Shown: positions 15,860 to 36,583, numbered from the stretch's first letter. The stretch is 64,000 nt of DNA from an uncultured Bacilli bacterium (GCA_947623735.1 CANQHE010000001.1:18687-82686); one strand, 5' to 3'. Translations and numbers: made by a program. Notes: generated by a model not told the origin, from the sequence alone.

Positions 15860-15890
15860 ATTATAACATAATACCCCCCCCCCACGTCAA
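15860..15890 (-). promoter_or_regulatory. sigma-A-like promoter with a G10 homopolymer in the spacer (candidate phase-variation switch) for paralog 1
   Basis: Minus strand reads TTGACG-T-G10-TATTATGT-TATAAT (extended TGn -10) with a 19-nt spacer. The C10 run on the plus strand is 15874-15883, ~25 nt upstream of the RBS. Confidence 0.65.
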
Positions 15891-15985
15891 TATATGCTAT
15901 TAACCTTTTTACAATTTTACGTCTAAATTCCAAAAAAAAGAAGCGATGAAATTTAATTCATCACTTCCATAAAAAATTTAATTAA

Positions 15986-17650
15986 TTAGTTTCTTGCATA
16001 TCTTTTCTTTAAAGCTATACCTAAGCCTAAAGTTCCAACAGCAGCTACACCAGCATAAGTTAAGATATTATCACCAGTTTCTGGACTAATAACAATTGCT
16101 TCAAAATACATACCTTCAGTAATTTCTGTATCAAGACTAAGTTCTTTTCCGTCTTTATCTACAAACTTTTCAATATCATAGTCATCTTTTAGAAGTTTCT
16201 TATAATCTCCTAAAGTCATACCTTTCTCAAGTTCTATTGAAATTTCTTCATCATCTATTACTAATGTAAATGTAACAAGATCTTTTGCTTCATTAACTAA
16301 TTTTATGGCATTGCTTAGTTCTTCAGTAGATTTAATTGTTGCTTCTGTTGCTTCATCAATAGCAGCTTGAGTAGTTAATAAATCACCAGCACCAAGCCCA
16401 TAATTACTTAATATTTTCTCTAGATTTTTTAATGCTTTAGTTTGCGCCGCATTTAATTTTTTATCTTGTAAACTTTCTGCTAATTTGTGTCCCTCTTCTA
16501 AAGTTTTAGAAAATTCCTCACTAGCCTCATTTAGTTTATCAAAATTTAAAACTTCAGCTTTAGAATTTGCCGCAAGTAATGATTCGTCTATTTGTGATGT
16601 AAAAGCTCCTCCGGTAATTGAGTTTTTAAAAGCTTCTTTATCTTTAGAAATAATATTTAAAGAACCTTTTGCACCTTCAAAATAACCATCACTTATTTCA
16701 AATTCTTTAACTGCTGTATCTTCTATTCCCGTAGGTCCTTCATAAATAGCATAAGCATTCGTACTATATACTTCTGTATCACCACTTATAGAGATTTCTA
16801 CATCTCCAGCATAAGCTTCATTAGTTGTAATACTTATAGCTGATCCAGTTGCTGTAACCTTTCCAGACTCTTCAACTGGATTTGGCACATATTCTCCGTT
16901 TCCATATATATATCCTCCAGTAATATTAAATTTACCAGATTTAATACCTATACCTTCATTTCCTGAGATCATTCCACCTTCAATATTCCAAGTACCATAT
17001 CCAGCGGCATATATACCTTGAACATTAGAAGAAATAATAGCGGTATCATAAATATTTACTACTGGTCCATTAGTAGATATCCCAACATTACCATTAATTG
17101 TAACACCATCACTGTTATTACCATTAATTGTACCACGTATATTTAAAACTACCCCATCAGCTTTACCATTGTTGTCAGCAATACCAACTGTACCATTTAC
17201 AGTTGCATTAGCATTAATGTTAACTGTAGTCTTATCATTACCACTATCAGCGCCAACAATTCCGATAACTGTTACATTATCATCAATACCTGTTAAACTA
17301 ACATTTTCAAGTGTTAATGTTGTTCCCTTTCTAACTGTAACAATTGTACTTCTATCATCTCTATGAAGATTACCATTTTTAATTGTTAAATTTCCAGTAT
17401 CATCAAGTATAATTCTGTTAAGTAACTCAAAATCAATTTTATTTAAATCAAGTGTAATATTACCTTTAACAGTTAACTCTTCATTTACTGCTACAACTGT
17501 CGAATCCAAAGTACAACTTTTTGTACCACTATCTTGCATACAAGTTTTAAAAGTATCCCAAGCAGTAGTATCAGCTTTTGCTACACTCACAAATCCTAAA
17601 GATGCAAGAGTAACACCAAATAACCCCATCATTCTTTTGAGATTCTTCAT
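15986..17650 (-). CDS. sortase-anchored beta-helix surface protein, paralog 2
   Basis: True start MKNLKRMMGL at 17650. Same architecture as paralog 1; C-terminus SPETGDNILTYAGVAAVGTLGLGIALKKRYARN. Confidence 0.8.
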   Translation of the reverse strand: MKNLKRMMGLFGVTLASLGFVSVAKADTTAWDTFKTCMQDSGTKSCTLDSTVVAVNEELTVKGNITLDLNKIDFELLNRIILDDTGNLTIKNGNLHRDDRSTIVTVRKGTTLTLENVSLTGIDDNVTVIGIVGADSGNDKTTVNINANATVNGTVGIADNNGKADGVVLNIRGTINGNNSDGVTINGNVGISTNGPVVNIYDTAIISSNVQGIYAAGYGTWNIEGGMISGNEGIGIKSGKFNITGGYIYGNGEYVPNPVEESGKVTATGSAISITTNEAYAGDVEISISGDTEVYSTNAYAIYEGPTGIEDTAVKEFEISDGYFEGAKGSLNIISKDKEAFKNSITGGAFTSQIDESLLAANSKAEVLNFDKLNEASEEFSKTLEEGHKLAESLQDKKLNAAQTKALKNLEKILSNYGLGAGDLLTTQAAIDEATEATIKSTEELSNAIKLVNEAKDLVTFTLVIDDEEISIELEKGMTLGDYKKLLKDDYDIEKFVDKDGKELSLDTEITEGMYFEAIVISPETGDNILTYAGVAAVGTLGLGIALKKRYARN

Positions 17651-17672
17651 AATCTCCCTCCTTCTAACAAAG

Positions 17673-17703
17673 ATTATAGCATAATACCCCCCCCCCAGGT
17701 CAA
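17673..17703 (-). promoter_or_regulatory. promoter with G10 tract in the spacer for paralog 2
   Basis: TTGACC-T-G10-TATTATGC-TATAAT, 19-nt spacer. C10 run at 17687-17696. Confidence 0.65.
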
Positions 17704-17798
17704 TATATGCTATTAATCTTTTTACAATTTTACGTCTAAACATCAAAAAAAAGAAGTAATGAAAATTTATTCATCACTTCCAGAAAAAACTTAATTAA

Positions 17799-19580
17799 TT
17801 AGTTTCTTGCATATCTTTTCTTTAAAGCAAATCCAAGACCTAAAACACTTATTGCTCCAACACCCACAAATGTTAAGATATTATCTCCCGTTTCTGGACT
17901 ACTAAGAACAACATTAACTTCAGTATCTTCAGTATACTTCTTATCTAAATCTGTAATTTCTTTACCATCTTTATCTAAGAATTTTTCAATATCATAATCA
18001 CCTTTAACAAGCTTTTTAAGATTGTTTAAAGTAGCTTTTTCTTTTTCTAACTCAAAATCTTCTTTAATGGTTTTTTTACCATCTTTAATAACTAAAGTGA
18101 AAGTAACTCTATTTCCAGCTGCTACTAAATCATCAAATGCAAAGTTAGTTTGTTCAACTAAGTCATTTATCAAAGCTGTATAATCATCAATAGCTTTTTG
18201 AGTTGTAGGTCTTTCATCAAAAGATATATTACTAAAAGCTTCAGCTAATCCTTTAATTTTTTCAACTACTTTTTTCTCAGCTTTATTAAGAACAGACTCA
18301 TCACCATAATCTTTAATCTTATCAAGTTCATCTGCTTTACCTTCTAAAGCTAAGAAACTTTCATAAGCTTTTTCTAACTCGCTATAATCCAAAATTTCAG
18401 CTTTAGAATTTGTTGCAAGTAAAGCTTCATCTACATTACCATTATAAGTACCACCAGTTACTTTATTCTTGATATTCGCATCATCTTTAGATTGGATATT
18501 AAGTGCATCTTTATCTACAGCACTTTCAAAGTAACCATCACTAATATTTAAACCTTTAACAGCAGTACCAGTACTACCATCAGTTTTATATTCCATAACG
18601 GCATTTCCTTGTTTACTTACTAATTTACCACCTGAAATAGATACTGTGACTCTACCATTTCCATAACTATTAGTTACACTTAAAGCAGCACCAGTATTTT
18701 CAGCAGCACTATCCTCTTTTCTTGGAGTTCCATTATATTCTCCATTACCAGTTATATCTCCACCAGTAATATTAATATTACCAGCTTTAGCAGATATACC
18801 TTCAGAACCAGTAATAGTTCCACCAGTTATATTCCATTTTGCATAACCTGCGGCATATATAGCTGGACCATCAGAAGTAATTGTAGCTCCTTCACCAACA
18901 TTAAATTCTGGAGCTTTATCATCATCATCAGTCTTTAAATTACCATGAGCATATAAGCCAAATCTAGTAGCTTTTATTGTCCCATTAACGGTTACATTTA
19001 CACCTTTTGCTCCTTCGTCATTAAATACAGCAATACCAACTTCACCAATTAAAGTTGCATTTTCTCCAATTGTTACACTTGTTGTACTTGTTCCTGTTGC
19101 GGCCTTATCACCCCAAACTGAAATGACTTGAACATCATCAGTTTCTGTTGTTTTTAAAGTTCCCTTAACTACATCAACAGTTGAACCTACTCTTACATTT
19201 ACTATGGCAATACCACTACTTTCAATAGAACCATTACCAACACTACTAGTATCAGTAATCGTAAACTTTGCTGTACTATTATTCCCATCAGTATCTTGAC
19301 CAACTGAAATACGATTTTTCAAAGTTAACTTATGACCATTTAAATCCAAAGTAATATTATTTTTAACAACAATATCTGTACTACTAGGACTTGGTTCGCC
19401 ATCTGTTTCACTAAAATCGCCATTAAGTTTACAAACCTTATTTCCAGTTTCATCTTCTAAACAAGTTTTTAAATCAGCAAAACTACTAATTAAGGAATCT
19501 TCTGCTCTAACAGTCATCGTAAATGCAAATGCCATGACTGTTATAACCAATAACCCACTTATTCTTTTGAGATTCTTCAT
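17799..19580 (-). CDS. sortase-anchored beta-helix surface protein, paralog 3
   Basis: 593 aa starting MKNLKRISGLLVITVMAFAFTMTVRA; C-terminus SPETGDNILTFVGVGAISVLGLGFALKKRYARN. Confidence 0.8.
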   Translation of the reverse strand: MKNLKRISGLLVITVMAFAFTMTVRAEDSLISSFADLKTCLEDETGNKVCKLNGDFSETDGEPSPSSTDIVVKNNITLDLNGHKLTLKNRISVGQDTDGNNSTAKFTITDTSSVGNGSIESSGIAIVNVRVGSTVDVVKGTLKTTETDDVQVISVWGDKAATGTSTTSVTIGENATLIGEVGIAVFNDEGAKGVNVTVNGTIKATRFGLYAHGNLKTDDDDKAPEFNVGEGATITSDGPAIYAAGYAKWNITGGTITGSEGISAKAGNINITGGDITGNGEYNGTPRKEDSAAENTGAALSVTNSYGNGRVTVSISGGKLVSKQGNAVMEYKTDGSTGTAVKGLNISDGYFESAVDKDALNIQSKDDANIKNKVTGGTYNGNVDEALLATNSKAEILDYSELEKAYESFLALEGKADELDKIKDYGDESVLNKAEKKVVEKIKGLAEAFSNISFDERPTTQKAIDDYTALINDLVEQTNFAFDDLVAAGNRVTFTLVIKDGKKTIKEDFELEKEKATLNNLKKLVKGDYDIEKFLDKDGKEITDLDKKYTEDTEVNVVLSSPETGDNILTFVGVGAISVLGLGFALKKRYARN

Positions 19581-19602
19581 AATCTCCCTCCTTCTACAAA
19601 AG

Positions 19603-19633
19603 ATTATAACATGATACCCCCCCCCCAGGTCAA
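19603..19633 (-). promoter_or_regulatory. promoter with G10 tract in the spacer for paralog 3
   Basis: TTGACC-T-G10-TATCATGT-TATAAT, 19-nt spacer. C10 run at 19617-19626. Confidence 0.65.
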
Positions 19634-19677
19634 TATATAGCCATCAAATTTACACATATCTTATTTAATTTTACTAT

Positions 19678-20211
19678 TTAAAACTTTTTAGTCCTTTTTA
19701 AAATTATAAAAATGCCTCCACTAATTAATATTAAAATTACTACAAGATATCCATATGATTTACTACTAACTTCTTCATATATTCCTTTATTTTCTTCTAA
19801 ACATTCTTTAGTATTTTCTTTATTTTCTATTTTAGCTACTAAATCACAATAATTACTTTCTTTTTCATAAGCATCTATAGCTTTCATTATTTTATCTTTT
19901 ACTTCATCATCATATCCAACAAAATAATTAGAACCAATTATAACAAGAGGTAATTTATTTTTCTTAATATCTAATGTTTTTCTAACATCATTAAATAAAT
20001 CTGGATAATCTTCAATATTAATATATTCTACATTTATAAATTTATCTTTTTTATATTCTTCAAGCCAATTTTTTTCAGTTTTACATTCTTCACATTCTTC
20101 TTCATAAAAAACATTAATTTTAATATTATATTCTGAATTCGTTATAACAGCATAGGAAGTTATCGGAAAACATAAAATCATAATTAATAATAACATAAAT
20201 AAAACTTTTTT
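19678..20211 (-). CDS. membrane-anchored thioredoxin/glutaredoxin-like protein, last gene of the giant-protein operon
   Basis: Start MKKVLFML at 20211 (RBS GGGGAGG). Signal peptide, CEEC redox-like motif, C-terminal TM YLVVILILISGGIFIILKRTKKF. Confidence 0.5.
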   Translation of the reverse strand, partial: KKVLFMLLLIMILCFPITSYAVITNSEYNIKINVFYEEECEECKTEKNWLEEYKKDKFINVEYINIEDYPDLFNDVRKTLDIKKNKLPLVIIGSNYFVGYDDEVKDKIMKAIDAYEKESNYCDLVAKIENKENTKECLEENKGIYEEVSSKSYGYLVVILILISGGIFIILKRTKKF

Positions 20212-20284
20212 CATTATTTCCTCCCCAATATTGTTTAAAGGTGTGATTATCAATTATCACACCTTTAAAACTTGTTTTTAATTT

Positions 20285-23200
20285 TTACTGTGTGTCCGCA
20301 ATAACATTAATGCCTTTTTCTAATTCTTCTGTTTCTGTATCATCTTTAATATATTTTATATCAACTAATGATGGATCTTTCGTTTTTACAGTTATATTAC
20401 TAAAATCATCACTATCATTAGAATAATTAACTCCAATTTTCATCGATTGTGATACTATTGTAGCCGAATTATTTGCGACACTTTCTAATCTTAAATTATA
20501 TTTATTACTACTTAATGTATTTGCAGCATTTCTTATTTCAGCATTTGTATCAAAAGCCTTCATGATTACATCACTATTTTTGCCACTACTTTGGGCATCA
20601 TCTTTAGCAAAAGTATTAAGATATAAATCTGTTCCAGACGCTACATTTCCATTAAGATAAACATAATTCTCTATTTTAGAAGCTTCAAATCTATTCCATC
20701 TTATATCACCAATTACTTTAGTACTATGACTAATTAAAATACCATACGTTGCATTTCCAGCCCCTATATTACTTACTTTAGAATCCCAAAGAGTAAATTT
20801 AGCTTTTTCCCCTGAAGTAATATTGACATTTATAATCGCATTACCATTTTCTGAATAATCACTACTATTTCCTTGAATATTTAATCTTTGGAAGAATATT
20901 TCATCAGCCGTAATATTAATTCCTTTAACTTTTAAAATAGATGTTTCTTTTTTATCTCCTATAATAGTCATTGATTTATTAATTGTTAATATTTTATCAC
21001 TTAGATCAATAGTAGAATTTTCATTTATGTATATTTCATCGACTTCAGGTTTTGCTAATGCTTTTTCAAATTGATCAGCATTAGAAACATGCTCAGCCCC
21101 TTCTTTTACACTAACACAAAATGCAGTATAATAAGTTGCATCGCCCGTCACATTTACTTGTTCTTTAACCGAAGCCGACATTTCACAACTTGTTCCCTCT
21201 CCAGAAGCTGTCTTCGTATCGTTATAATTTAAAGAGTAGCCCTTCAAATTATAAATATGACCCTTGTATTCTAATTTTTTCAAAGATGCAAATACTTCTC
21301 CTTCATCAGTTGGTGGTGTTACATTTGATCCATATATTGCATACCTTATGAATGAAGCTTTTGAACCAGCCTCAACATTTTGGAAAGTTATTTTATAAAT
21401 TTTAGAATTTTCTTCTTTATTATAATAATTATAGTAGTCATAATCTTCATCAAATGCTTTAGTATCTCCACGAGTTCCTTTTGTAGCCGGTGTTATTTTT
21501 TCTTTTGTTATTTTTTGAGCCTTTTTATTATCATTAATCGTTAAATTTACAACAGAATTATCATTTTTCGGAGTTTTAATTGCCGGCAAATTATAATTCT
21601 CATTATTCATAGTAAGTTTATCACCACTTACTGTACTTGTATCTTTTACTAAAATTCCAGCTTCAGTATTATCACTAACATCTAGACTACTAAATGTTAA
21701 TCCTCCCGCATTAGATACAACAATAGCTTCTTTAGCTCCCGTTAATTTAAGATTTTCCATACTAACACTTGGAGTTTTAATTGTAAAAATATTTGTTAAA
21801 TTTTTATCACTTTTTGCCGTAATAGTATATGCATCACCATTACTAGATATATTAACCGGATTATTTACCTCCAATGTATTTTCAACATCGAAGCTTTTCA
21901 TTATTTGAATTTTTTTAATACTTTTATTTGCTAAAGCCGCGGTTAATTCTGCTTCATTTTGAACAGGAGCAATATCTGTTTCAAACTTGAATGTATATTC
22001 TTTTGTTACCTCATCATTAAGTTTTACTGAATCATCAAGACTACCAATTATTAATTTAAACTCTTTATTTTCAACAGCCATTTTATTTAAAGTCATATTA
22101 CTTTCAGCTTCTTCGCCACCTAAAACTTTTTTAAATAATGCTTGTGCTCCAACTTGAATTTTTTCTTTTAAAGCTGAACCAATAGGATCTAAACTAGCTG
22201 TTTGCACTTCATAACTACTTGCATCCTTAGTAAATACTACCTTTTTGTCCCCGAAAAATAATGTGATATCTTTTATTTCTCCTCTTTGAAGAATATAAGC
22301 AATAGTACCAGGGATAGAAGTTCTATTCATATCACTTAATTTAGTAGTTGTATCTTTTACTTTAAATGTAATCGTATTGCCATCTTGATTAACTTCGAAA
22401 ATATCTGAAAAATCTGTTGAAAAATGACTATCTTTATTTTTCAAATCCTCAACTACATCAACTAAGAATTTATCTATATTTAATGTATAGTGAGCTTTCA
22501 AAGTAATATCTTCATCTTTATTTGTACTAGCAGATCCAAAAGCAAATTGAACACTTGAGCCTTTCTCCTTATCATACCAATAATCAAGACTATGATATTT
22601 ATAACTATCTAAACTTGGAGCTATTGAAGACTCTATAGTTTCTCCTTGATATACAATTTTAGCTTCAGATTGCACTGTTCCAGTAGACTCATCAAAATAT
22701 TCAAATATTACTTTATTTTCTGATAAGAAAGTAAATGTAGTATTTATAGTTATCTCTTCTGAAGGTAAAAATTCTTTATCGGCATTGCCATCATAATCTA
22801 TTTTATAATGAATACCTTGATTACCATCTTTCATTTTAAATAACACAATAATATATCCATTTTCATAATCAGTTGGTGATGGATGTTTTTCAACATAATT
22901 GCCTTCGCTATCTTTTAAACTGATAGTCCATTTATTATGATATTCTGCTGGTAAATCATCAATAGGAACTGTAATTTTTACAGGAACATAATATCCTTCA
23001 TCTTCACTAAATCCAGCTGCTGGATCTAAAGTTTGTTCCTTTACCGTACCAGTTAAACCATTATGATAGCTTCCAGTTTCTTCTTGCATTCCAGTTGAAT
23101 ATTTAACATCAACCTTACTAAAATCAAAATGCCAACTATTTTCTAATGTTTGCTTATCTATTTCATTTAATTCATTTTCTTTAACTGGTTCATAATCACT

Positions 23201-25276
23201 ACCAGAATTTGAATCTCCCTGAAATTTTAGTTTACTCCAATTAATTGTAATTGAATATTCTCCATATTCTTCATCAGTTCCATCTAAATCAACTTTAATT
23301 TCAAATGTTTTATTATTATCTTTAGGATTAATATATTTAAGTACATACATTATCTTAGATCCATCAAAATCTTTACTTGTAATAGCTTTTCCATTAGAAG
23401 AATTATCAGTTGTTTCTTCCTCATCACCATGAAGAAATTTAACAATTATATTATCTTTATTTTCACTAACAGGTAATTTTTCATCTAATTTAATTATAAA
23501 TCCTAAATAATATGGACCATATCCCGTATTAAATGGATCACTATTCCAGTCATTATTGTCAAAAATTGGTAATAATCCCGTAACTTCTAATTTTTGAGGA
23601 TTATCATTTATCTTACTAAATGTAGTTTTATATCCATCTTTTGCTTCCCAACCATAAGGTGTATTAAATGGATCGCTACTATCATCTATATTATCAATTG
23701 TAAAAGTTGATGCTTTACGACACTTTAATTCGCTGAAATCTATTCTTATTTTAGTTGGAACCCCATCAATTTCAATAATAATATCCCGATATTTTGTTAC
23801 CTCTTTTTCTTCAACTTCCATCAATAATGTTAGCTTATTATCTGTAAAATCACTTTTTGTAGCTACATTATATTCATCTCCATCACCAGGTCCTTTAGGA
23901 AGTTTAACATTTACTTCATTTATACCATCATTTAAAGTTAGTGTAAATGCAAAATAATAATTTGATGGACTACTTCCAAAGCCTTTTACACCTTTTTGTT
24001 CTGTTATATAGCCACTAATCTTATAGCCATCTTCATTTTTTTCAATTTTATATGTATCCTCCGGTGTATAATTAAGTTCTTTTAACTCTTGTAATCCTTT
24101 TTCAGGAATAGTTTTATCTATTTCCGCTTGTGAAGTATAAGCAAATTTTATATCGTACTGTTCTTCAATTTTATCATTTTGGGAACGAGCATTCTTATCA
24201 TCCACTTTTATAGTTAAAGTAAGCTTATCCTTGATATTAACTAAATCTCCCAAAGTTACATTTTTAAACTTTGTTAAAGCATCAGTCCCATCACGTACTT
24301 CAATTCCTGTTAATTTACATAGTAATAATGCAAATTGTTGCCATGCTGGCGATAATGGTCCCGCACCCCCACTTACGTCATCATCATCAAATTCAACACT
24401 TTCCGTACCATTAGAAATAGTTAATGACGTAACGTTTTGAGCATTTACTATATTAACAATATCACCAATTAACCCCGTATTAGATATTTCACTATTTTTC
24501 TTATTTAAGTCATAAACATTAAATGTTATTACTCCATCTTTAAAGTCAACATCATAATAATAGCCATTTGTCTTAGTATTTTTATTAATTGTCTCTTTAG
24601 CTGTATTTATAAGATTATCTGTATTAACTTCATCATACCAAGTTGCTTTTAATTTTATATTTTTAGTAACAGTGTCACTATCAAAATCCCAAGTTCCATT
24701 GCCATCTTCAGTTTTAATCCATTCTTTGAATCTCTTTTCCTCTCTTGTAGGAGCATTTTCACCCGTAATTAGATTTCTATCTATTTTTCCATTTTCTTCA
24801 ACATAAATATGATCTTTTCCATCTTTAAATGAACCTTCATCTAATTCAAATTCTACTTTATAAAGTTCTTTTACATATTTATAATCAACATATCGTATGT
24901 TAATCTTTTGACTTGCATCTAACTTTATACTATCTGTTCCTAAAAATGGTGTAGTTACTTCCCAACCAGCTCGCTCATGATTTGCGTATTTTACTTTTAA
25001 TCTATAAATAGTCATTTTACTATAATCTGTATCACCAGCTGAAGGAATTCCATTTTTACTCTTATTCGCTGCTAATATTATATCTTGAATATTTATTTTA
25101 TGCTCGCTTGTAAAAACATATTCGCCAATTATTAATGCTTCATCAGCATTAGGAACAAGTGAATCAATTACATCTCCTAATTCTTCTAAATTTACTTCTC
25201 TTGCATTTACTTGAAAAATTGATACGAAGAAACTCATAAACAAGATAATCAATAATTTACAATATTTATTTTTCAT
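20285..25276 (-). CDS. giant secreted surface protein (1663 aa) with Listeria-Bacteroides (Flg_new) repeats and beta-helix regions; no sorting signal
   Basis: N-terminal signal peptide MKNKYCKLLIILFMSFFVSIFQVNA; Flg_new-like GW...YxxW segments; no LPXTG-like C-terminus. Stop-start spacing to flanking genes suggests co-transcription from the 27.05 kb promoter. Confidence 0.7.
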   Translation of the reverse strand: MKNKYCKLLIILFMSFFVSIFQVNAREVNLEELGDVIDSLVPNADEALIIGEYVFTSEHKINIQDIILAANKSKNGIPSAGDTDYSKMTIYRLKVKYANHERAGWEVTTPFLGTDSIKLDASQKINIRYVDYKYVKELYKVEFELDEGSFKDGKDHIYVEENGKIDRNLITGENAPTREEKRFKEWIKTEDGNGTWDFDSDTVTKNIKLKATWYDEVNTDNLINTAKETINKNTKTNGYYYDVDFKDGVITFNVYDLNKKNSEISNTGLIGDIVNIVNAQNVTSLTISNGTESVEFDDDDVSGGAGPLSPAWQQFALLLCKLTGIEVRDGTDALTKFKNVTLGDLVNIKDKLTLTIKVDDKNARSQNDKIEEQYDIKFAYTSQAEIDKTIPEKGLQELKELNYTPEDTYKIEKNEDGYKISGYITEQKGVKGFGSSPSNYYFAFTLTLNDGINEVNVKLPKGPGDGDEYNVATKSDFTDNKLTLLMEVEEKEVTKYRDIIIEIDGVPTKIRIDFSELKCRKASTFTIDNIDDSSDPFNTPYGWEAKDGYKTTFSKINDNPQKLEVTGLLPIFDNNDWNSDPFNTGYGPYYLGFIIKLDEKLPVSENKDNIIVKFLHGDEEETTDNSSNGKAITSKDFDGSKIMYVLKYINPKDNNKTFEIKVDLDGTDEEYGEYSITINWSKLKFQGDSNSGSDYEPVKENELNEIDKQTLENSWHFDFSKVDVKYSTGMQEETGSYHNGLTGTVKEQTLDPAAGFSEDEGYYVPVKITVPIDDLPAEYHNKWTISLKDSEGNYVEKHPSPTDYENGYIIVLFKMKDGNQGIHYKIDYDGNADKEFLPSEEITINTTFTFLSENKVIFEYFDESTGTVQSEAKIVYQGETIESSIAPSLDSYKYHSLDYWYDKEKGSSVQFAFGSASTNKDEDITLKAHYTLNIDKFLVDVVEDLKNKDSHFSTDFSDIFEVNQDGNTITFKVKDTTTKLSDMNRTSIPGTIAYILQRGEIKDITLFFGDKKVVFTKDASSYEVQTASLDPIGSALKEKIQVGAQALFKKVLGGEEAESNMTLNKMAVENKEFKLIIGSLDDSVKLNDEVTKEYTFKFETDIAPVQNEAELTAALANKSIKKIQIMKSFDVENTLEVNNPVNISSNGDAYTITAKSDKNLTNIFTIKTPSVSMENLKLTGAKEAIVVSNAGGLTFSSLDVSDNTEAGILVKDTSTVSGDKLTMNNENYNLPAIKTPKNDNSVVNLTINDNKKAQKITKEKITPATKGTRGDTKAFDEDYDYYNYYNKEENSKIYKITFQNVEAGSKASFIRYAIYGSNVTPPTDEGEVFASLKKLEYKGHIYNLKGYSLNYNDTKTASGEGTSCEMSASVKEQVNVTGDATYYTAFCVSVKEGAEHVSNADQFEKALAKPEVDEIYINENSTIDLSDKILTINKSMTIIGDKKETSILKVKGINITADEIFFQRLNIQGNSSDYSENGNAIINVNITSGEKAKFTLWDSKVSNIGAGNATYGILISHSTKVIGDIRWNRFEASKIENYVYLNGNVASGTDLYLNTFAKDDAQSSGKNSDVIMKAFDTNAEIRNAANTLSSNKYNLRLESVANNSATIVSQSMKIGVNYSNDSDDFSNITVKTKDPSLVDIKYIKDDTETEELEKGINVIADTQ

Positions 25277-25290
25277 AATTCTACTCCTTT

Positions 25291-26886
25291 TTAACTATAT
25301 TCGACTGTAACATTAGCCTCTGTCCCGTCACTTAAATAAATTGTTGCATTACGTACATTTAAATTTACATTAGTAATATACTTATTATTTCCTTTAAAAG
25401 TACGCTCTGTACCATTATAAAGAATTGTTTTATAATCACTATCATTGATTGGAGAACCATTCTTATAAATAATTCCCTCATATTGAATAGTTGAATGCAA
25501 TTCATTATCAATTTTTCGCAATTTAAGAACATATGTGGCTGGTTTTTCTTTAATCGTTATTGTATGGGTATCAGTTTTTCCATTTTTGCTCGTAACTTTT
25601 ACAGTAACCGTTCCTACTTTGTTTGCTGTTACTTTACCATTTTGCGTTATACTAGCATTGCCACTTCCATTAGTAATACTCCAAGTAACCGTCTTATCTG
25701 TTGCATTACTAGGATTAATTGTCACTTTTAAACTTACAGTATCTCCCACATACATTTCACTGCTTCCTGTTATTTTAACGCTTTTTACTTCCACTACAGT
25801 TGGTTTAGGATTAGATTTTTTCTTAACACTTATTTCTTTACTAGCAGTTTTACCACCGTCTTCTGTTTTTACCGTAATTTTAACAGTACCAGTATTTTTC
25901 CCAGTTACTCGACCATTTTGATCAACTGTAGCTATATTACTATCACTACTAGACCATGATACATTTTTATTTGTCGCATTACCTGGCTTTATTACAGCCT
26001 CTAATTTAATTGTATCTCCAACATATACTTCTTTATCCCCATTTATAGATACTCCTGTAACATTTATGACTGGTGCTTTTTTCACAGTTATAGTTTTCGA
26101 AGACTTTTTACCATTACTAGTAGTAGCACTTATTACTACTGTTCCTTCACTTCTTCCTGTTACTCTTCCATAACTATCTACAGTTGCGACATACTGATTA
26201 CTACTTGTCCATGTTACATTTTTATCGGTAGCTTCATCAGGTTTTACTATAGCTTGCAATATTATCGTATCCCCAATCGTTACCTCTTCATAACCGTTAA
26301 TCGTAACACTTTCAGCATCAATCTTTTCTTTTGTAACTTTAACTTTGCAAGTAGCTGTATATTTCCCATCTTTAGTTTTTATAGTTATTATAGCTTCACC
26401 TTCACTTAAAGCTTTAATCTTCCCATTTTCAAGCATAGTAACTATTTTATCATTACTTGATGTCCAAACAAATTGATCAAGACTAACTCCTGAAGGTAAA
26501 CTAATTACATCTATTTTTTCTTCTTTATCAATTAAAATATTTAAACTTGTAACATTTAGCTCTAATTTTTCTAATGCACTCCATCCGGCATATAAAGTAA
26601 TATCATTAGTTATTTCACTATTAAAATTAAATTCTTTCTTTAACTCTTTATCAGTGTACCAACCTAAAAAATTATAACCTTCTTTTACCGGATCTTTTGG
26701 CTTTGAAACTTGCTCATGAGCTCGCACTTTTACACTAGCAACAGCTGTACCTCCATTACTCTCAAAAGTAACCACATATTCTTTTACTGTACAACCTTTA
26801 ATTAAAAATATTAAAATTATACAAAGTAATAATATTCCCAAAATAATTCCAATTAAAATTTTATTATCGGATACCTTTTCCATCAT
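25291..26886 (-). CDS. membrane-anchored Big_2 (bacterial Ig-like group 2) repeat protein with an N-terminal Flg_new repeat
   Basis: 531 aa with N-terminal TM and at least three Big_2 repeats (VTWTSSN..ATVD.NGRVTG...GT..I). RBS AAAGGAAG. First gene downstream of the poly-G promoter at 27051-27081. Confidence 0.75.
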   Translation of the reverse strand: MMEKVSDNKILIGIILGILLLCIILIFLIKGCTVKEYVVTFESNGGTAVASVKVRAHEQVSKPKDPVKEGYNFLGWYTDKELKKEFNFNSEITNDITLYAGWSALEKLELNVTSLNILIDKEEKIDVISLPSGVSLDQFVWTSSNDKIVTMLENGKIKALSEGEAIITIKTKDGKYTATCKVKVTKEKIDAESVTINGYEEVTIGDTIILQAIVKPDEATDKNVTWTSSNQYVATVDSYGRVTGRSEGTVVISATTSNGKKSSKTITVKKAPVINVTGVSINGDKEVYVGDTIKLEAVIKPGNATNKNVSWSSSDSNIATVDQNGRVTGKNTGTVKITVKTEDGGKTASKEISVKKKSNPKPTVVEVKSVKITGSSEMYVGDTVSLKVTINPSNATDKTVTWSITNGSGNASITQNGKVTANKVGTVTVKVTSKNGKTDTHTITIKEKPATYVLKLRKIDNELHSTIQYEGIIYKNGSPINDSDYKTILYNGTERTFKGNNKYITNVNLNVRNATIYLSDGTEANVTVEYS

Positions 26887-27050
26887 TTTATATACTTCCT
26901 TTCTAACTTGCTATTCAAAAAAAACATTTTAAACCTAGCTTCGTTTAAAATGTACAACAACTCCATTCTAACTCAACTCCTTTATTATAAAATTAACTCA
27001 TAACAAACAATATTAGATAACTATTTTTTATTTATTATTCTACTAAAAAA

Positions 27051-27081
27051 ATTATACCATATAACCCCCCCCCCAAGTCAA
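27051..27081 (-). promoter_or_regulatory. promoter with G10 tract in the spacer for the Big_2 / giant-protein / thioredoxin-like operon
   Basis: TTGACT-T-G10-TTATATGG-TATAAT, 19-nt spacer. C10 run at 27065-27074. Roughly 160-nt 5' UTR before the Big_2 gene. The paralog-5 terminator hairpin (AAAGAGAGGtttcaaaGCTTCTCTTTTTTT) lies just upstream at ~27100-27140. Confidence 0.6.
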
Positions 27082-28897: not shown

Positions 28898-28928
28898 ATT
28901 GTAACATAATACCCCCCCCCCACGTCAA
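28898..28928 (-). promoter_or_regulatory. promoter with G10 tract in the spacer for paralog 4
   Basis: TTGACG-T-G10-TATTATGT-TACAAT, 19-nt spacer. C10 run at 28912-28921. Confidence 0.65.
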
Positions 28929-28996: not shown

Positions 28997-30448
28997 TTAG
29001 TTTCTTTTTAAAGCTTTTCTTGTTGTAAAACCAACTACTCCTAAACTAATTATTGCCATACCTACATAAGTTAAGATATTATCTAATGTTTCCGGTGCTT
29101 CTTTTACAACTACTAAATGCATATCAGCTTCAACTAAAGTATCTAAATCTAAATTTTTACCATCTTTATTTTTAAATCCAGTTGCATCTTTGTAATTTTC
29201 TAATAAATCTGCTAAAGTAGTACCAGCATCAACTGTTAAAGTAGTTTCTTTACCATCTTCTTCAACTACAATATCATATTGTATTTTTTCAAAAATTACT
29301 TTAACTGTTACTTCACTATCAGGCATTGTAAATTTATTTACTTTAACAGGAACATCCTTACCATTTGCATCAGTTACTATAACTTCAATAGCTTTATAAC
29401 CTTCATTACCTTTATAAGTAATTGTTACTTCTTCACCTTTTTTAGCTACAGCTTTATCAGTTGAAACTGTACCATTTTCAGTCTTTTCTATATTTACAGC
29501 ATATTTAACAACTTTATCAGGTGCATAAACTACATTAGTACCACTTATAGTAGCACCACTTTCTAATGTAACATTTCCTTTAAATTCAAGTTTAGCACTA
29601 CCATTAGTTTTAATTGTCATACCTACTGGAATATCAACATCATCATTAACTGTAGTATCATTATTAATAACAATATTATCTACACCTGTTTTACTAGCTT
29701 CCTCTAATGCTTGTTCCATAGTTAAATAATAATAAGATCTTTCACCATTTGAAGCAGTTATTGGAAATTCAATATCATAAGTAACTCTTACATAAGTATA
29801 AGAAACATTACTATCAACACTACCTGAATCAGATAATCTCCATACCCAAATAGTATCACTTTCTGGTACTGTAAAAATATAGTCTTCACCATATACTAAA
29901 TCATCAACATCACTTTTTCCAGTTAAATCTTTTATTTTATCACCAATACTTGTGCCACCATTACTTAAATCAGTTATTGTAGTCCAAACACCATCTTTAT
30001 TATATTGAATTTGAACACCTAACGTCCAAGCCGGAATATTATCATCATGTTCAGTTCCTTTGCTTTGAGCATCAGCATTAGCTTTAGCTTGGGCTTTTGC
30101 ACATTCGATATCACAAGAATCAGATGTATAAGCATAATGTTTATCTAAAGTTTTATTTTCCTTTGTTAAACCAGTAGGTGCTACACTAACATAGAATATA
30201 CCTAAACTAGCTTTGCCAACCTCACCTGATCCGTATCCTGGTGTTTGAGCTAAAATTGAATCAATAGTATCTTGATTAACTTTAACAGTTACTTTTGCTG
30301 CATAATCATCACCAACAGAAATATCTTCAACCTTAAGTAAATTTGCATCTAAACCACCATTACTTAAAGTTAAACCTGTTGCATTAACTGTTACTACTGC
30401 TACAAACATAGCAACAAATGTCATTACAAATAATTTTAATTTTTTCAT
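28997..30448 (-). CDS. sortase-anchored surface protein, paralog 5 (divergent N-terminal region, same ubiquitin-like C-terminal domain, APETLDN sorting motif)
   Basis: 483 aa with signal peptide MKKLKLFVMTFVAMFVAVVTVNA. C-terminal YDIVVEEDGKETTLTVDAGTTL...VVVKEAPETLDNILTYVGMAIISLGVVGFTTRKALKRN. Confidence 0.75.
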   Translation of the reverse strand: MKKLKLFVMTFVAMFVAVVTVNATGLTLSNGGLDANLLKVEDISVGDDYAAKVTVKVNQDTIDSILAQTPGYGSGEVGKASLGIFYVSVAPTGLTKENKTLDKHYAYTSDSCDIECAKAQAKANADAQSKGTEHDDNIPAWTLGVQIQYNKDGVWTTITDLSNGGTSIGDKIKDLTGKSDVDDLVYGEDYIFTVPESDTIWVWRLSDSGSVDSNVSYTYVRVTYDIEFPITASNGERSYYYLTMEQALEEASKTGVDNIVINNDTTVNDDVDIPVGMTIKTNGSAKLEFKGNVTLESGATISGTNVVYAPDKVVKYAVNIEKTENGTVSTDKAVAKKGEEVTITYKGNEGYKAIEVIVTDANGKDVPVKVNKFTMPDSEVTVKVIFEKIQYDIVVEEDGKETTLTVDAGTTLADLLENYKDATGFKNKDGKNLDLDTLVEADMHLVVVKEAPETLDNILTYVGMAIISLGVVGFTTRKALKRN

Positions 30449-30514
30449 AATATCATTCTTCCTTTCTAAAATTAATTGTTTGCTTTAAACAAAATTTTCT
30501 CCTTTCTTAAATCC

Positions 30515-30545
30515 ATTGTAACATAATACCCCCCCCCCACGTCAA
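30515..30545 (-). promoter_or_regulatory. promoter with G10 tract in the spacer for paralog 5
   Basis: TTGACG-T-G10-TATTATGT-TACAAT, 19-nt spacer. C10 run at 30529-30538. Confidence 0.65.
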
Positions 30546-30611
30546 TATTGAATCTAAAATTATACATCAAAAAAGACAACCTTTTAATTAGATTGCCTTA
30601 AATTAATTTTA

Positions 30612-32663: not shown

Positions 32664-32726
32664 AATATCATTCTTCCTTTCTAAAATTAATTGCTTTAAA
32701 CAAAACCTTTCTCCTTTCTTAAAGCC

Positions 32727-32757
32727 ATTATAACATATAACCCCCCCCCTTCGTCAA
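32727..32757 (-). promoter_or_regulatory. promoter with G9 tract in the spacer for paralog 6
   Basis: TTGACG-AA-G9-TTATATGT-TATAAT. The spacer is still 19 nt, the shorter tract being compensated by AA. C9 run at 32741-32749. Confidence 0.65.
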
Positions 32758-32873
32758 TATCAAAAATACAAATAGACGTCAAGAAAATAAATCTTTCAAA
32801 AATCATGAAAAAAATTCCCATCAAAACTCGATGAGAACTTTTTATTTTTAAAATAATATTTTACTTTTATTTA

Positions 32874-34238
32874 TTAATCTTCTGACTCATATAAAGCTTC
32901 AAATGCTGGAACTGTAATTGTTACACCATCTCTAACATAAATTTCAGGATCAATAGGTTTCCAACCAACAAACTTAAACCCATCTCTTGCATCAGGCGCT
33001 GTCATTTCAATACTTGATGTATCAGCCCGTCTACCTACATTAACAGCACTTTTTCCTCCATCAAATCCTACACAATAAGTTGTATTACATGTAAAGCGTG
33101 CAAACCAAATAAGTCCTCTTCCATCAACACCATATTTCTTTAATGTTTCATTATCTATTCCATTTAATGTTAAATATGAATTAGATGTAACTCCAATCGT
33201 ATCTTTTAAAGTAATAGTTGGTATTGAAGCAATCGTCCGATTCGTAGAAACAATTTTCGCTCTTTCAGAAGCTGATAATTTAAATACTTGTTTAGGCTTA
33301 CTTGTTTCTTCTTGTGTTTTCTTTTCTTCTGTTGCATTTTGTTTATTAGCTTCCGCTTGTTTTAAACTATCTTCCGATTCTCTTTGTCTTCTAGCTTCGG
33401 CATCCGCTTCAGCCTGAGCCGCTTCTGCTTCCACTTTGGCAGCTCTTTCAGCTTTAGCTGCATCTCCGGCTTCTTTTTGGGTTTTAAGTAACTCTTCGTA
33501 TGCTTTATTGTTAGCTTCTTCAGCTCTAGCAGCCGCATCTAATGCCCATTGTGGTAAACTACTTACAGATTGTTCTGCTTCTTCTTTTTCCTTTTCTTTT
33601 TTTGCCTGCTCTTCTTGAACTCTCAATTGTTCAGCTTCAGCTTTTGCTTTTTCATCTTGGGCTTTTTTAGCAGCTTCTTCGGCCGCTTTCTTAGCTTCAT
33701 CAGCGATTCTTTTCTCCTCAGCCGCTTTAGCCGCCGCTCTATTAGCAGCCTCTACTTCTGCTTGAGCTTCTTCCTTAGCTTTTGTTGCTTGTCTAACTTC
33801 TTCTTCGGCTTTTTCAATTTTAGCCATCGCTGCTTGTTTTTCAGTTTCATTCTTAGCTGATTTTAATTCGGCTTCAGCCGCTTTTTTAGCTTCAGTCGCT
33901 CTAATTACCTCTTTTTGAGCAGTTTCTTCTTTGGCTTTGGCTTCCTTAACTGTTGCCTCTGCCTTTTCAAACTTCTCTTGAGCCGCTAAAACTGATTTTT
34001 CCGCTTTCACAACTTCTTCTTTAGTTTTTTCTACCTTTTCTTCAGCTTGTTCTACTTCTTTTTGTGCTTCTTCAACTGTCTTTTCAGCATAACTTAAAGT
34101 ATTTCCTTTATCTACCACACTAGTATAAGCTTTATTTACATTATCATTATTTACAGCAACTATATATGCTCCTGTTGCCACTAATCCCGATGTTAAAACT
34201 AAACCAGTAACAGCTTTAAAAGATAATAATTTCTTCAT
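32874..34238 (-). CDS. M-protein-like A/E/K-rich coiled-coil surface protein with a C-terminal Flg_new-like globular domain
   Basis: True start MKKLLSF at 34238 (RBS AAAGGAGA). N-terminal signal anchor, ~250 aa of AEEKVEKTKEE-type heptad-like low complexity, C-terminal GFKFVGWKPIDPEIY. No poly-G promoter upstream. Confidence 0.65.
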   Translation of the reverse strand: MKKLLSFKAVTGLVLTSGLVATGAYIVAVNNDNVNKAYTSVVDKGNTLSYAEKTVEEAQKEVEQAEEKVEKTKEEVVKAEKSVLAAQEKFEKAEATVKEAKAKEETAQKEVIRATEAKKAAEAELKSAKNETEKQAAMAKIEKAEEEVRQATKAKEEAQAEVEAANRAAAKAAEEKRIADEAKKAAEEAAKKAQDEKAKAEAEQLRVQEEQAKKEKEKEEAEQSVSSLPQWALDAAARAEEANNKAYEELLKTQKEAGDAAKAERAAKVEAEAAQAEADAEARRQRESEDSLKQAEANKQNATEEKKTQEETSKPKQVFKLSASERAKIVSTNRTIASIPTITLKDTIGVTSNSYLTLNGIDNETLKKYGVDGRGLIWFARFTCNTTYCVGFDGGKSAVNVGRRADTSSIEMTAPDARDGFKFVGWKPIDPEIYVRDGVTITVPAFEALYESED

Positions 34239-34380
34239 ATTATAATGTCTCCTTTCTTCCAATAAATATTAAGAAATATTTATACGTATATTATATGCAT
34301 AAAACTCCCAATTAGTCAAGCCCAAAATAAAAAGTGTTAATCCTTTTTGAAAATGTCAGTACAAGATTTTTTGAAAATGT

Positions 34381-34640
34381 CAGTACTATCATATGATAGA
34401 ATATATCTTCGGAACAACTGTTGAAGTATGGCAAGGTGTATTTAATCCTAATTTAGTAGAATATTCAAAAGACATATTGAAGGTCATAGAAGTGATCCTG
34501 TTAAAAGAGAGCAAAAAAGAATTGATGATTAAAAGATATTAGAACAGCTTATAAGAGAAAGAGATGAAAGATTAAAAGCAAGGGCGAAACATAGTTGAGT
34601 TCATCTTGACCCTTGCTTTTTAGATTTCATTAATCATAAT
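34381..34640 (+). other. degenerate insert: 50-aa orphan ORF (MIEYIFGTTVEVWQGVFNPNLVEYSKDILKVIEVILLKESKKELMIKRY) followed by a long imperfect hairpin; flanked by 14-nt direct repeats and an inverted copy
   Basis: GAAAATGTCAGTAC occurs at 34343-34356 and 34371-34384, with an inverted copy (GACATTTTCAAAAAA) at 34706-34720. Hairpin AAGCAAGGG...CCCTTGCTT at ~34589-34622. No similarity to other genes in the window. Confidence 0.25.
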
Positions 34641-34780
34641 ATTTTCACAAATAAAGCTCGTCTTTATTTGTTACTAATTCACTTGCATCGCAAAATACAA
34701 AAACTGACATTTTCAAAAAATCTTAACAGCCCAAAATAAAAAGACAACCTTTAATTAGATTGCCTTAATTTACCATTTAA

Positions 34781-36529
34781 TTAGTTTCTTTTTAATGTTT
34801 TTCTTATTGTAAAACCTAAAGTTCCTAAACTAATTAATCCTAAACTTACATAACTCATAACTGGATCTAAAGTTTCAACAGCTTCAATACTAACAACTTT
34901 AACATACATACCATCAGTAAGTTTTACATCAGATTTTAATTCTTTACCATCTTTATCAGTTATTTTAAGGAATTCTACACCTGACATACTTAACATTTCT
35001 TCAATGTCTTTAACAGTTGAACCTTCCCAGAAGCCCATATCCTCAGCTTCACCATCAACTTCTATAGTAACGGTATAAACATCTTTATAAACTACTGTAA
35101 TTTTAGTATCAGCATTAAGTGGTGTCTTATCATTAAGATCAATAGTTTTCTTACCCATTAAGAATTGTTTAATAATATTAGAATCTCTATATTCATCTAA
35201 AGCTATATCTTTTAAAGCTTTACCTTTAAGAACTTCAAATGATTCAATTTCTTCTCCATCAACATCTACCAAAGTAATTTTAATAGTTTCAACAGTACTT
35301 GAAGTATTACTATTATTTTTAACTAATGTAAGGTTATCATCGCCAACTTTAACATTTACTGCTTTAGCTGATTTATTAAGTAAAATAGCTCCTTCTTCAG
35401 CACTAATAGTTAATTTTGTTGCATCAGCATCTTCTTCAATAACTAATTCTTGACCTTTAGCAACATTAATATTATTAGCGGATACATCTCCTTTAACAGT
35501 TATTGTATTATTGTTAATGACAACACCTTGAGTAAAGTCTACGTTTGCTCCAGCTGATTCATCAACTGTTTCATATTCAAATACAACACCAGCACCAGTT
35601 ACAGTTAGTTTATTATTTTCTCCTGGAACTGAACCAATCTTAGTAGCAGTCACATTGGCAGAACTACTAATAATTGCATTTCCATCTAAAGAAATATCTT
35701 TTCCACTTGATGTTGCATTACCTGTTGCATTAACCTTAGTAGTACCTCCAATATTTGAATCTCCCACTAAAGTAATACCAGTACTAGTATTACCAGTTAC
35801 AGTTATAGTTGAATCACCCTCTGAAGTAATTTTACCTTTAACTCCTGATACCCCATTAGTAACAGTTAAATTACCATTATTTAATGTAATATCTTTATCT
35901 CCAGTAATACCAAATCCCATACTATTTGTTACTTTTACAGAACCATTATCTTTAATATCTAGCTTATTAAGCCCTTGCATACCACATTCCATTTTGGTGA
36001 TATTTAATGCTGAACCTTCGCCACTTACAGTTACAGTTCCTTGATAGTATGCTGATCCATTATAACCAGTAATACCTCCTGTGTTAGATGTACTACTTGT
36101 AGTATAGTTTCCTGTAATATTTACTTTACCACCATTAGTAATATTTAAAGCTGAATTAGCTCCTTTTAAAACTATGGCATAATTTCTTGGCATATTAGAA
36201 CCAGTTACAAATTGGGTTGTAGTTGTATTAGTAAATACTAATTCCCCACCATTTACTGTAACCTTTCCATTCTCTCCAATAATTAAAGTCCGATCACCAA
36301 AATCGACTTTACTAGCAATTGTAATTTCACCATCAATTTCAATCGCTTCGCATTTTGCATCTGAAGCACTACCATTATACCCTAAGGCCGTAGTTAAATC
36401 AGTTGTATCAGTAACTTTACAAATCTTGGCATTAGAATCTCTAGTTACTTCCGCATTAGCTGTCATGTTAAATGCTAAAGACATAACAGCAATCATCAAA
36501 AACCCACTTATTCTTTTAAGATTTTTCAT
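34781..36529 (-). CDS. sortase-anchored beta-helix surface protein, paralog 7 (AVETLDP sorting motif)
   Basis: 582 aa with signal peptide MKNLKRISGFLMIAVMSLAFNMTANA, NITNGG/VTGN repeats, C-terminal ...VVSIEAVETLDPVMSYVSLGLISLGTLGFTIRKTLKRN. Confidence 0.75.
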   Translation of the reverse strand: MKNLKRISGFLMIAVMSLAFNMTANAEVTRDSNAKICKVTDTTDLTTALGYNGSASDAKCEAIEIDGEITIASKVDFGDRTLIIGENGKVTVNGGELVFTNTTTTQFVTGSNMPRNYAIVLKGANSALNITNGGKVNITGNYTTSSTSNTGGITGYNGSAYYQGTVTVSGEGSALNITKMECGMQGLNKLDIKDNGSVKVTNSMGFGITGDKDITLNNGNLTVTNGVSGVKGKITSEGDSTITVTGNTSTGITLVGDSNIGGTTKVNATGNATSSGKDISLDGNAIISSSANVTATKIGSVPGENNKLTVTGAGVVFEYETVDESAGANVDFTQGVVINNNTITVKGDVSANNINVAKGQELVIEEDADATKLTISAEEGAILLNKSAKAVNVKVGDDNLTLVKNNSNTSSTVETIKITLVDVDGEEIESFEVLKGKALKDIALDEYRDSNIIKQFLMGKKTIDLNDKTPLNADTKITVVYKDVYTVTIEVDGEAEDMGFWEGSTVKDIEEMLSMSGVEFLKITDKDGKELKSDVKLTDGMYVKVVSIEAVETLDPVMSYVSLGLISLGTLGFTIRKTLKRN

Positions 36530-36552
36530 CTATCATTCTCCTTTCATCATTA

Positions 36553-36583
36553 ATTCTAACATGATACCCCCCCCCCACGTCAA
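36553..36583 (-). promoter_or_regulatory. promoter with G10 tract in the spacer for paralog 7
   Basis: TTGACG-T-G10-TATCATGT-TAGAAT, 19-nt spacer. C10 run at 36567-36576. Confidence 0.6.

Follow-up and report, generated by a model that had tools for sequence, protein, structure and literature searches.

Why would a stretch of DNA that is 72% A+T hold eight runs of nine or ten G residues, each of them placed between the -35 and -10 hexamers of a predicted promoter? The question is raised by 64,000 nucleotides (nt) from an uncultured Bacilli bacterium (GCA_947623735.1, CANQHE010000001.1), hereafter the window, in which eight such promoters (P1 to P8) precede genes for surface and secreted proteins; the locus extends from position 15860, the last base of the -10 hexamer of P1, to position 36583, the first base of the -35 hexamer of P8. 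On the sequence evidence, we consider it quite probable that the tracts act as promoter-spacer switches like those of porA and vlp, each gene being switched on its own by slipped-strand mispairing, with a default length of G10 that would correspond to a weak or OFF state.

Eight promoters with a G tract in the spacer

The preliminary description had reported eight C runs on the plus strand, and a run search of the 64-kb window recovered every one of them at its reported position: seven C10 and one C9 (32741-32749). A search of the whole window for C9 returned 15 overlapping matches that resolve into these eight runs, and besides them no further G/C run of 7 nt or more occurs within the 64 kb. 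The excess is large, as eight C runs of at least 9 nt compare with 0.04 expected from dinucleotide shuffles, and eight G/C runs of at least 9 nt with 0.03 expected from first-order Markov simulation. Relative to Markov simulation, the window is strongly depleted in runs of A or T, with two of at least 9 nt observed against 16.7 expected, and none of at least 10 nt against 6.6. Judged by this composition, slippage-prone tracts appear to be selected against in the window and kept only in the eight promoters, a textbook hallmark of contingency loci. An excess of G tracts, a depletion of A/T runs and targets endowed with signal peptides and SPxTG-like anchors are thus found together.

Read on the minus strand, all eight promoters conform to the consensus TTGAC(G/C/T), 1-2 nt, G10 (or A plus G9), 8 nt with TRTGn, and TA(T/C/G)AAT. 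The regular expression TTGACN-Nx-TAnAAT returned a spacer of exactly 19 nt in 8/8 promoters, as had been claimed, with TG at the extended -10 position in each. The 8 nt that follow the tract had been described as ending in TG; they actually end in TGn, that is, in the extended -10 or Gram-positive -16 TRTG motif. A homopolymer is therefore present in the predicted promoter spacer of all eight copies, the arrangement that defines the porA, opc and vlp type. The promoters are as follows, tract coordinates referring to the plus strand:

P1, 15860..15890, minus strand: TTGACG-T-G10-TATTATGT-TATAAT; tract 15874-15883; terminator of the upstream gene 15968-15939
P2, 17673..17703, minus strand: TTGACC-T-G10-TATTATGC-TATAAT; tract 17687-17696; terminator 17781-17752
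P3, 19603..19633, minus strand: TTGACC-T-G10-TATCATGT-TATAAT; tract 19617-19626
P4, 27051..27081, minus strand: TTGACT-T-G10-TTATATGG-TATAAT; tract 27065-27074; 164-nt leader; terminator 27134-27109
P5, 28898..28928, minus strand: TTGACG-T-G10-TATTATGT-TACAAT; tract 28912-28921; terminator 28982-28956
P6, 30515..30545, minus strand: TTGACG-T-G10-TATTATGT-TACAAT; tract 30529-30538; 66-nt leader; terminator 30599-30573
P7, 32727..32757, minus strand: TTGACG-AA-G9-TTATATGT-TATAAT; tract 32741-32749; 63-nt leader
P8, 36553..36583, minus strand: TTGACG-T-G10-TATCATGT-TAGAAT; tract 36567-36576

Alignment of the eight regions reveals an invariant block composed of T-TTGAC, nine G's, T, ATG, TA and AAT. 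Hexamers and flanks had been said to differ between copies. This holds for the upstream flanks of P3, P4 and P8, which are unrelated to those of the other copies, but not for the core, which is the same throughout. Long flanks are common to P1 and P2, and to P5 and P6, a pattern that reflects recent duplication. The single G9 copy, P7, had been interpreted as a tract with a compensating A. The simplest explanation is instead that the leading G of an ordinary G10 was replaced by A (compare TTGACG-A-A-G9 with TTGACG-T-G10), and a plain substitution carries no information on selection for spacing.

Intrinsic terminators lie directly upstream of P1, P2, P4, P5 and P6, and the start codon is found 22-24 nt past the -10 hexamer in P1, P2, P3, P5 and P8. 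With terminators and short leaders of this kind, each gene is predicted to form its own transcription unit, for which the G-tract promoter is the sole candidate. The strong ribosome-binding site (RBS) reported some 20 nt downstream of each promoter is indeed present for those five, which have their own Shine-Dalgarno sequence, but not for P6, P7 and P4. The homologous leaders of P6 (30449-30514, minus strand) and P7 (32664-32726, minus strand) hold an AAGGAG followed by a TTG-initiated mini-ORF (open reading frame) of 6 and 11 codons, respectively, before the true RBS and ATG. In the longer P4 leader, an AT-rich, terminator-like hairpin with an 11-bp stem (-10.3 kcal/mol) followed by U8 occupies positions 26924-26953 (minus strand); its location between P4 and the start of the downstream gene suggests a possible layer of attenuation over the G tract. 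At the gathering threshold, Rfam recognized only three tRNAs in the window; no riboswitch was detected in the leaders and the P4-leader hairpin was unmatched.

The same regular expression identified five promoters lacking a G tract upstream of other genes, with spacers of 17 nt (1394, 13071, 42976 and 45378) or 18 nt (34319). Judged by these five, the 19-nt spacers are 1-2 nt above the organism's own norm.

Other arrangements were considered and set aside. A MerR-type promoter is contradicted by the spacer N-T-G10-TATTATGT, which contains no inverted repeat, and a palindrome search listed none at the promoters. An inverton would require flanking inverted repeats, yet the 25 longest such pairs in the window all fail to bracket any of the eight promoters. 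The alternative register TTGATA-17-TATTAT occurs only in P5 and P7 and is not conserved. Finally, an intragenic frameshift switch was dismissed since ORFs cross the tract only at P1 and P2, and none does so at the other six. Mechanical calls at these two loci (14134-15933, 599 amino acids (aa), and 15986-17746, 586 aa) run through the promoter and read the G10 as GGG codons. These extended ORFs are spurious, with a TTG start located within the upstream terminator tail and no RBS; automatic annotation could wrongly label the P1 and P2 tracts as intragenic.

Tract length in sibling assemblies and in other genomes

Four metagenome assemblies of the European Nucleotide Archive (ERZ27249187, ERZ27249651, ERZ27249657 and ERZ27249662), with a coverage of ~3x, contain sibling contigs that are 99.8-100% identical to the window over most of the alignment (59,286 nt aligned, with 50 mismatches, 29 of which are in one divergent contig end). 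The preliminary description had advocated a comparison of tract lengths across related strains and genomes. Among 21 orthologous tracts in the siblings, four differ in length from the window while their flanks are 97-100% identical:

G10: 15 tracts, same length as in the window
G9: 2 tracts, the native G9 of P7 in both siblings
G9 (18-nt spacer): 1 tract, P5, contig L131, sample ERZ27249657
G11: 1 tract, P1, contig L001, sample ERZ27249662
G13: 1 tract, P3, contig L124, sample ERZ27249651, alongside TTGACC>TTGAAC
G7 (16-nt spacer): 1 tract, P8, contig L126, sample ERZ27249187; G10 in three others

G10 is kept at P2 in three siblings and at P4 in four. Tract length thus varies among close relatives with unchanged flanks, albeit in siblings of ~3x coverage, and the observation of other lengths removes the earlier concern that consensus calling had collapsed them all to one value. 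Each variant was found at a separate locus and in a separate sample, which matches the expectation for independent switches. The variants of +3 and -3 have flanks that are 100% identical. Only three clean internal indels were found outside tracts in 59 kb (a 21-nt in-frame deletion, an 11-nt deletion and a 3-nt insertion), a density of ~5e-5 per base that predicts ~0.01 indels in 210 tract bases, where four were seen. The 21-nt deletion maps to the 33418 region, in the Ala/Glu/Lys-rich repetitive gene 32874-34238 (contig L126), and the 11-nt deletion to position 36626, in a T-rich stretch upstream of P8 (contig L128). The G13 variant of P3 (contig L124, promoter at 9435-9475 in ERZ27249651) precedes a gene with no more than 95% identity and a product that has lost 26 aa; with its altered -35 hexamer, this allele may be diverging or locked off.

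Tracts also coincide with three contig breaks: contigs L131 and L132 stop within the P3 tract, and contig L133 starts in that of P5. Such breaks could be due to length heterogeneity, and would also be compatible with technical stops. Illumina reads are error-prone at G tracts and tend to stop there, the so-called 'G's end' effect (PMC9187656). Given the low coverage of the siblings, variants of +/-1 could be errors; this is unlikely for the variants of +/-3.

A scan of 185,579 species-representative genomes with the pattern TTGAC-N2-3-G7-N3-13-ATGnTAnAAT returned at least 122 matches in at least 120 stretches of DNA. Among the matches listed, to which the following figures refer, many hosts are 'uncultured Bacilli' or 'Tenericutes' metagenome-assembled genomes (MAGs) from rabbit, mouse and human gut, and others are Clostridia, Negativicutes, Elusimicrobiota and Spirochaetales. 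The G tracts measure 7-19 nt and the spacers 15-25 nt. In the 56 low-GC matches G10 is the modal length (28/56), and spacer lengths form two peaks, one at 16-17 nt and one at 19-21 nt, whereas a spacer of 18 nt occurs in 1/56. Clustering by flanks defined 14 groups of homologous promoters, of which seven differ in tract length (G10/9/11, G9/10/9, G19/13, G9/16, G11/9, G8/10); the sole G7 group is invariant. Downstream ORFs with a signal peptide, lipobox, prepilin signal or transmembrane (TM) segment amount to 56/83, versus 131/389 in the background of the same loci (Fisher p = 2.6e-8), an enrichment that rests on a crude regular expression. Several of these ORFs encode GFTLIELL-type pilins.

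SrtB homologs were identified in two further uncultured Bacilli (L119, 55% identical; L011, 48%), a few kb from G-tract promoters of anchored proteins, which indicates that a module uniting SrtB with G-tract promoters recurs in this group. In metagenomes of the Joint Genome Institute, a clade-specific pattern gave 0 matches and a semi-specific pattern 1 match.

Several of these loci deserve mention in their own right. Promoters with shared flanks, paralogous or orthologous to one another, precede type IV pilin-like genes (GFTLIELL N-termini) in an Elusimicrobiota MAG (JAISHT01; L045, L064 and L071), with tracts of G9/G16/G12, and in uncultured Bacilli MAGs (L014, L092 and L114), with tracts of G19/G13/G16. 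In Phascolarctobacterium MAGs (L005, L029, L039, L074 and L078), a conserved TTGAC-G9/G10-ACAACATGCTATAAT promoter has a 17-nt spacer at G9; no obvious ORF follows it, and it may drive a small RNA. One of these contigs (L074) is labelled Escherichia coli and looks like a mis-binned contig.

Genes under the promoters and a neighbouring repeat element

The preliminary description had assigned seven sortase-substrate genes and one operon for Big_2 and giant proteins to the eight promoters, and signal peptides, anchors and an adjacent SrtB gene bear out this assignment. All of the genes are on the minus strand:

P1 gene, 14134..15837, minus strand: 567 aa, secreted; C-terminal SPETGDN sorting signal, TM segment, basic tail
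P2 gene, 15986..17650, minus strand: 554-aa paralog, SPETGDN
P3 gene, 17799..19580, minus strand: 593-aa paralog, SPETGDN
P4 operon, 19678..26886, minus strand: three genes, non-homologous to the genes of the other promoters
P4 operon gene, 25291-26886, minus strand: 531-aa protein with Big_2 x4 and Flg_new
P4 operon gene, 20285-25276, minus strand: 1663-aa protein
P4 operon gene, 19678-20253, minus strand: small glutaredoxin-like membrane protein
P5 gene, 27146..28873, minus strand: 575-aa paralog, SPETGDN
P6 gene, 28997..30448, minus strand: 483 aa, Flg_new_2 domain, APETLDN anchor
P7 gene, 30612..32663, minus strand: 683 aa, Flg_new_2 domain, SPNTLDN anchor
P8 gene, 34781..36529, minus strand: 582 aa, AVETLDP anchor
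Class B sortase, 13156..14004, minus strand: TIGR03064, 179.7 bits versus a cut-off of 153.75; PF04203

The products of the P1, P2, P3 and P5 genes are 554-593-aa paralogs, 40-46% identical, with an MKNLKRI-type signal peptide; those of P6, P7 and P8 are more distant relatives. Seven proteins combine the predicted attributes of class B sortase substrates, namely a signal peptide, a sorting motif, a TM segment and an R/K tail, with a SrtB gene nearby. The class B sortase at 13156-14004 is likely their anchoring enzyme. For the P3 protein, AlphaFold predicts (pLDDT 84, pTM 0.78) a beta-solenoid (~45-390), three helices (400-488), a beta-grasp domain (491-559) and the anchor. When this model was compared with PDB structures by fold, nothing reached E <= 0.001. 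Weak hints pointed to the serine-rich repeat protein adhesin of L. reuteri (5nxk, a beta-solenoid, E = 0.075) and to ubiquitin-like beta-grasp domains. Exact-protein look-ups of the P3 gene product, of the rpsB product and of the P6 gene product returned no recorded entry.

The organism is an uncultured spore-former, as gerA/B/C and ytvI are present, and the closest outside match of its EF-Ts is 83% identical, as is the nearest match that carries a name, from a MAG of a Bacilli bacterium. Ribosomal protein S2 (11148-12131) is 327 aa long and has a C-terminal extension; a Rho_N-like domain figures in the precomputed annotation of the copy from a sibling.

Between the P8 gene and a 454-aa coiled-coil surface gene (32874-34238), the island's only gene without a G-tract promoter, lies an element (34335-34728) with perfect 22-nt inverted repeats (ACTGACATTTTCAAAAAATCTT) at 34363-34384 and 34703-34724, 318 nt apart, where 0 would be expected. 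A third, degenerate copy of the repeat is found at 34339-34360, and a bidirectional hairpin inside the element at 34564-34630. Sibling contigs end within it at 34389, 34607 and 34675, and two siblings have it in the same orientation as the window. This element could be an inverton or resemble a miniature inverted-repeat transposable element. No recombinase, convincing internal promoter or inverted copy was found for the element at 34335-34728. A candidate promoter in the element (34363-34402) was dropped, its spacer measuring 20 or 15 nt.

The proposed switch, its alternatives and known systems

Each promoter would be of the sigma-A type, with a TTGACN -35 hexamer, a TRTG -16 motif and a TAnAAT -10 hexamer, and its spacer would consist for the most part of a hypermutable G10. 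Slipped-strand mispairing during replication would add or remove G residues, and the number of G's would set the distance between the hexamers (19 nt at G10) and thereby promoter strength. With terminator-bounded promoters and tracts that mutate independently, cells would come to differ in the combination of the eight units that they express, the repertoire consisting of seven SrtB-anchored beta-solenoid surface proteins and the Big_2/giant-protein operon. Expression would rise on contraction of the tract to G9-G7 (18-16 nt), so that the repertoire would be off by default and occasionally on. The notion of slippage-prone spacer tracts acting independently on each gene, already put forward in the preliminary description, draws support from the length variants of the siblings, the 17-18-nt norm, the purge of A/T runs and the homologous promoters elsewhere. 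Slippage itself, its effect on transcription, the ON length and reversibility within a clone are what we infer from these data.

Provided that the switch is real, we lean towards 19 nt as the weak state, because the window's other promoters have 17-18 nt and because, in large families of variable surface proteins, most members are as a rule silent. Uniformity at G10 would then result from shared ancestry and from a mutational attractor near G9-G10, such as exists in Campylobacter. Graded control is as likely as a strict ON/OFF switch, since porA is graded and the present promoters possess an extended -10.

Several observations weigh against a default-off slippage switch. First, the ~3x coverage of the siblings and the errors of Illumina reads at G tracts mean that a technical origin is conceivable for the contig breaks and for variants of +/-1. 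Second, the spacer is 19 nt in 25/29 observations from five assemblies, and low-GC MAGs most often have G10 irrespective of spacer length (28/56 among the matches listed); switching might then not be free, with G10 instead held by stabilising selection. Third, the extended -10 present in 8/8 promoters can work without a -35 hexamer, so that a change of spacer might bring about modest modulation only. Finally, duplication accounts for some of the eight promoters (P1/P2, P5/P6), which are therefore not eight independent inventions.

The alternative that survives best retains the hypermutable tract and reverses its polarity: genes would normally be expressed at G10 with 19 nt, a state favoured by the extended -10 and possibly also by an A-like geometry of G:C tracts, and slippage in either direction would lower expression and produce escape variants in place of rare ON variants. 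We regard it as rather unlikely, though it is well served by the predominance of 19 nt in the five assemblies, by related low-GC MAGs whose mode is 19-20 nt and in which 18 nt occurs in 1/56 (among the matches listed), and by promoter elements that are, spacing apart, all near consensus, TRTG included. Moreover, the consensus of many independent populations should show the ON state at least sometimes. These arguments are opposed by the 17-18-nt spacers of the organism's own non-G promoters and by the usual silence of large variable surface families. At 11G, the porA promoter has the canonical 17-bp spacer, which would argue against G:C geometry shifting the optimum. The porA tract lies inside the spacer, and expression peaks at 11G and drops as the tract gets shorter (PMC3639595).

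An improbable reading, on our assessment, is that G10 is a fixed cis-regulatory element, either a regulator site or a structural spacer of a co-regulated regulon, and that the length variants are errors. The uniform 19-nt spacing in 8/8 promoters, the modal G10 of low-GC matches whatever the spacer and the thin coverage of the siblings would all fit such an element. It is difficult to reconcile with the +3 and -3 variants between 100% identical flanks or with homologous promoters that range from G8 to G19 among the matches listed. The spacer also has no dyad symmetry, unlike a MerR-type operator, and, in a genome that eliminates long runs of A or T, a hypermutable 10-mer would be ill suited to serve as a fixed site.

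It is very improbable that the tracts are passive relics, devoid of a role, of an ancestral G-run promoter copied by gene duplication or conversion. The paralogy of the substrates, the long identical flanks of P1/P2 and P5/P6 and the common leader of P6 and P7 attest to such copying, but P3, P4 and P8 have the same core within unrelated flanks, and P4 drives unrelated genes. An unselected G10 should decay fast in a 28% GC genome, and in distant phyla this design is found ahead of unrelated surface genes, those of pilins and lipoproteins among them. That the tracts are artefacts of sequencing or assembly is hardly credible: poly-G artefacts of two-colour Illumina chemistry and homopolymer miscalls exist, and some tracts break contigs, but four independent assemblies have the eight tracts at identical places, and the tracts are internal to contigs between a conserved -35 and -10, and share their design with many unrelated MAG projects.

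If eight independent slippage switches operate as proposed, they would give access to up to 2^8 surface states. Were they confirmed, tract length would be a population variable, which alters the reading of MAG consensus sequences and bears on models of commensal escape from immunoglobulin A or phages, and on predicting the expression state of surface genes from metagenomes. The switch is directly testable from existing read data, and it would not be mechanistically surprising. A more tentative proposal, to which we give less than even credence, is that the window exemplifies a broad, undescribed promoter design of uncultured host-associated bacteria (gut Bacilli/Tenericutes, Elusimicrobiota, Spirochaetales and Negativicutes), in which a spacer tract of ~G10, viewed as a mutational attractor, would hold adhesin, pilin-like and lipoprotein genes poised-off at 19-20 nt. 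In that event, much of the surface variation of Gram-positive gut commensals would stem from slippage contingency loci, besides invertons.

Promoter switches based on homopolymers are textbook knowledge in Neisseria, Haemophilus, Mycoplasma and Campylobacter, whereas phase variation in gut commensals and Firmicutes has been studied almost entirely through DNA inversion. The mechanism had been called rare in Firmicutes. This is true of the literature that we searched, which yielded no account of promoters with a poly-G spacer from either Firmicutes or uncultured Bacilli, but not of genomes, as the design appears common in uncultured gut lineages, in particular among MAGs of uncultured gut Bacilli.

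In mycoplasmas, which as Mollicutes are placed within or next to Bacilli, the vlp genes of Mycoplasma hyorhinis (poly-A) and Vmm of M. mycoides (TA) are surface multigene families with a repeat in the spacer of each gene and combinatorial expression. They are the phylogenetically nearest precedent for spacer tracts that serve individual genes, and differ in their poly-A or TA tracts, lipoprotein products and wall-less hosts, where the present locus has poly-G and sortase substrates. At the Haemophilus influenzae fimbrial genes hifA and hifB, the number of repeats in overlapping promoter spacers sets expression; this system differs by its dinucleotide repeat, its divergent promoter pair and its single locus. 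The (TA)n repeat of the hifA/hifB promoter is cited in PMC5084427 (reference 18).

Neisseria meningitidis porA and opc offer the same principle of a ~9-13-nt G/C tract in the spacer that sets the strength of a surface-gene promoter, as we infer here. With the porA tract between -35 and -10, expression is high for 11G and reduced 2.2-fold for 10G and 13-fold for 9G (PMC3639595). The common expressed state of porA is thus the high one, at 11G, whereas the eight promoters described here rest at 19 nt, outside 17-18 nt. Furthermore, porA belongs to a Gram-negative pathogen with a single locus per gene family; the present case involves eight loci and SrtB-anchored targets in a spore-forming member of the Bacilli.

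The closest commensal parallel is Bifidobacterium breve, in which G10-G12 tracts control sortase-dependent pili, and in which error-corrected sequencing demonstrated tract heterogeneity and its enrichment in vivo (PMC9187656). That study also mentions further G tracts in promoter spacers (PMC9187656). B. breve differs in being an actinobacterium, in having two loci and in switching ON and OFF by intragenic frameshift. Clostridioides difficile shares surface phase variation (cwpV, flgB and cmrRST), a low-GC spore-forming Firmicute background and a SrtB that recognizes SPxTG-like signals, but it switches by site-specific inversion; slippage is proposed here, and no inverted repeats flank the eight promoters. 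Against these precedents, the class of mechanism is well known, and what is new is the host, an uncultured spore-forming member of the Bacilli with SrtB substrates, and the scale, eight probable switches of identical architecture within 21 kb.

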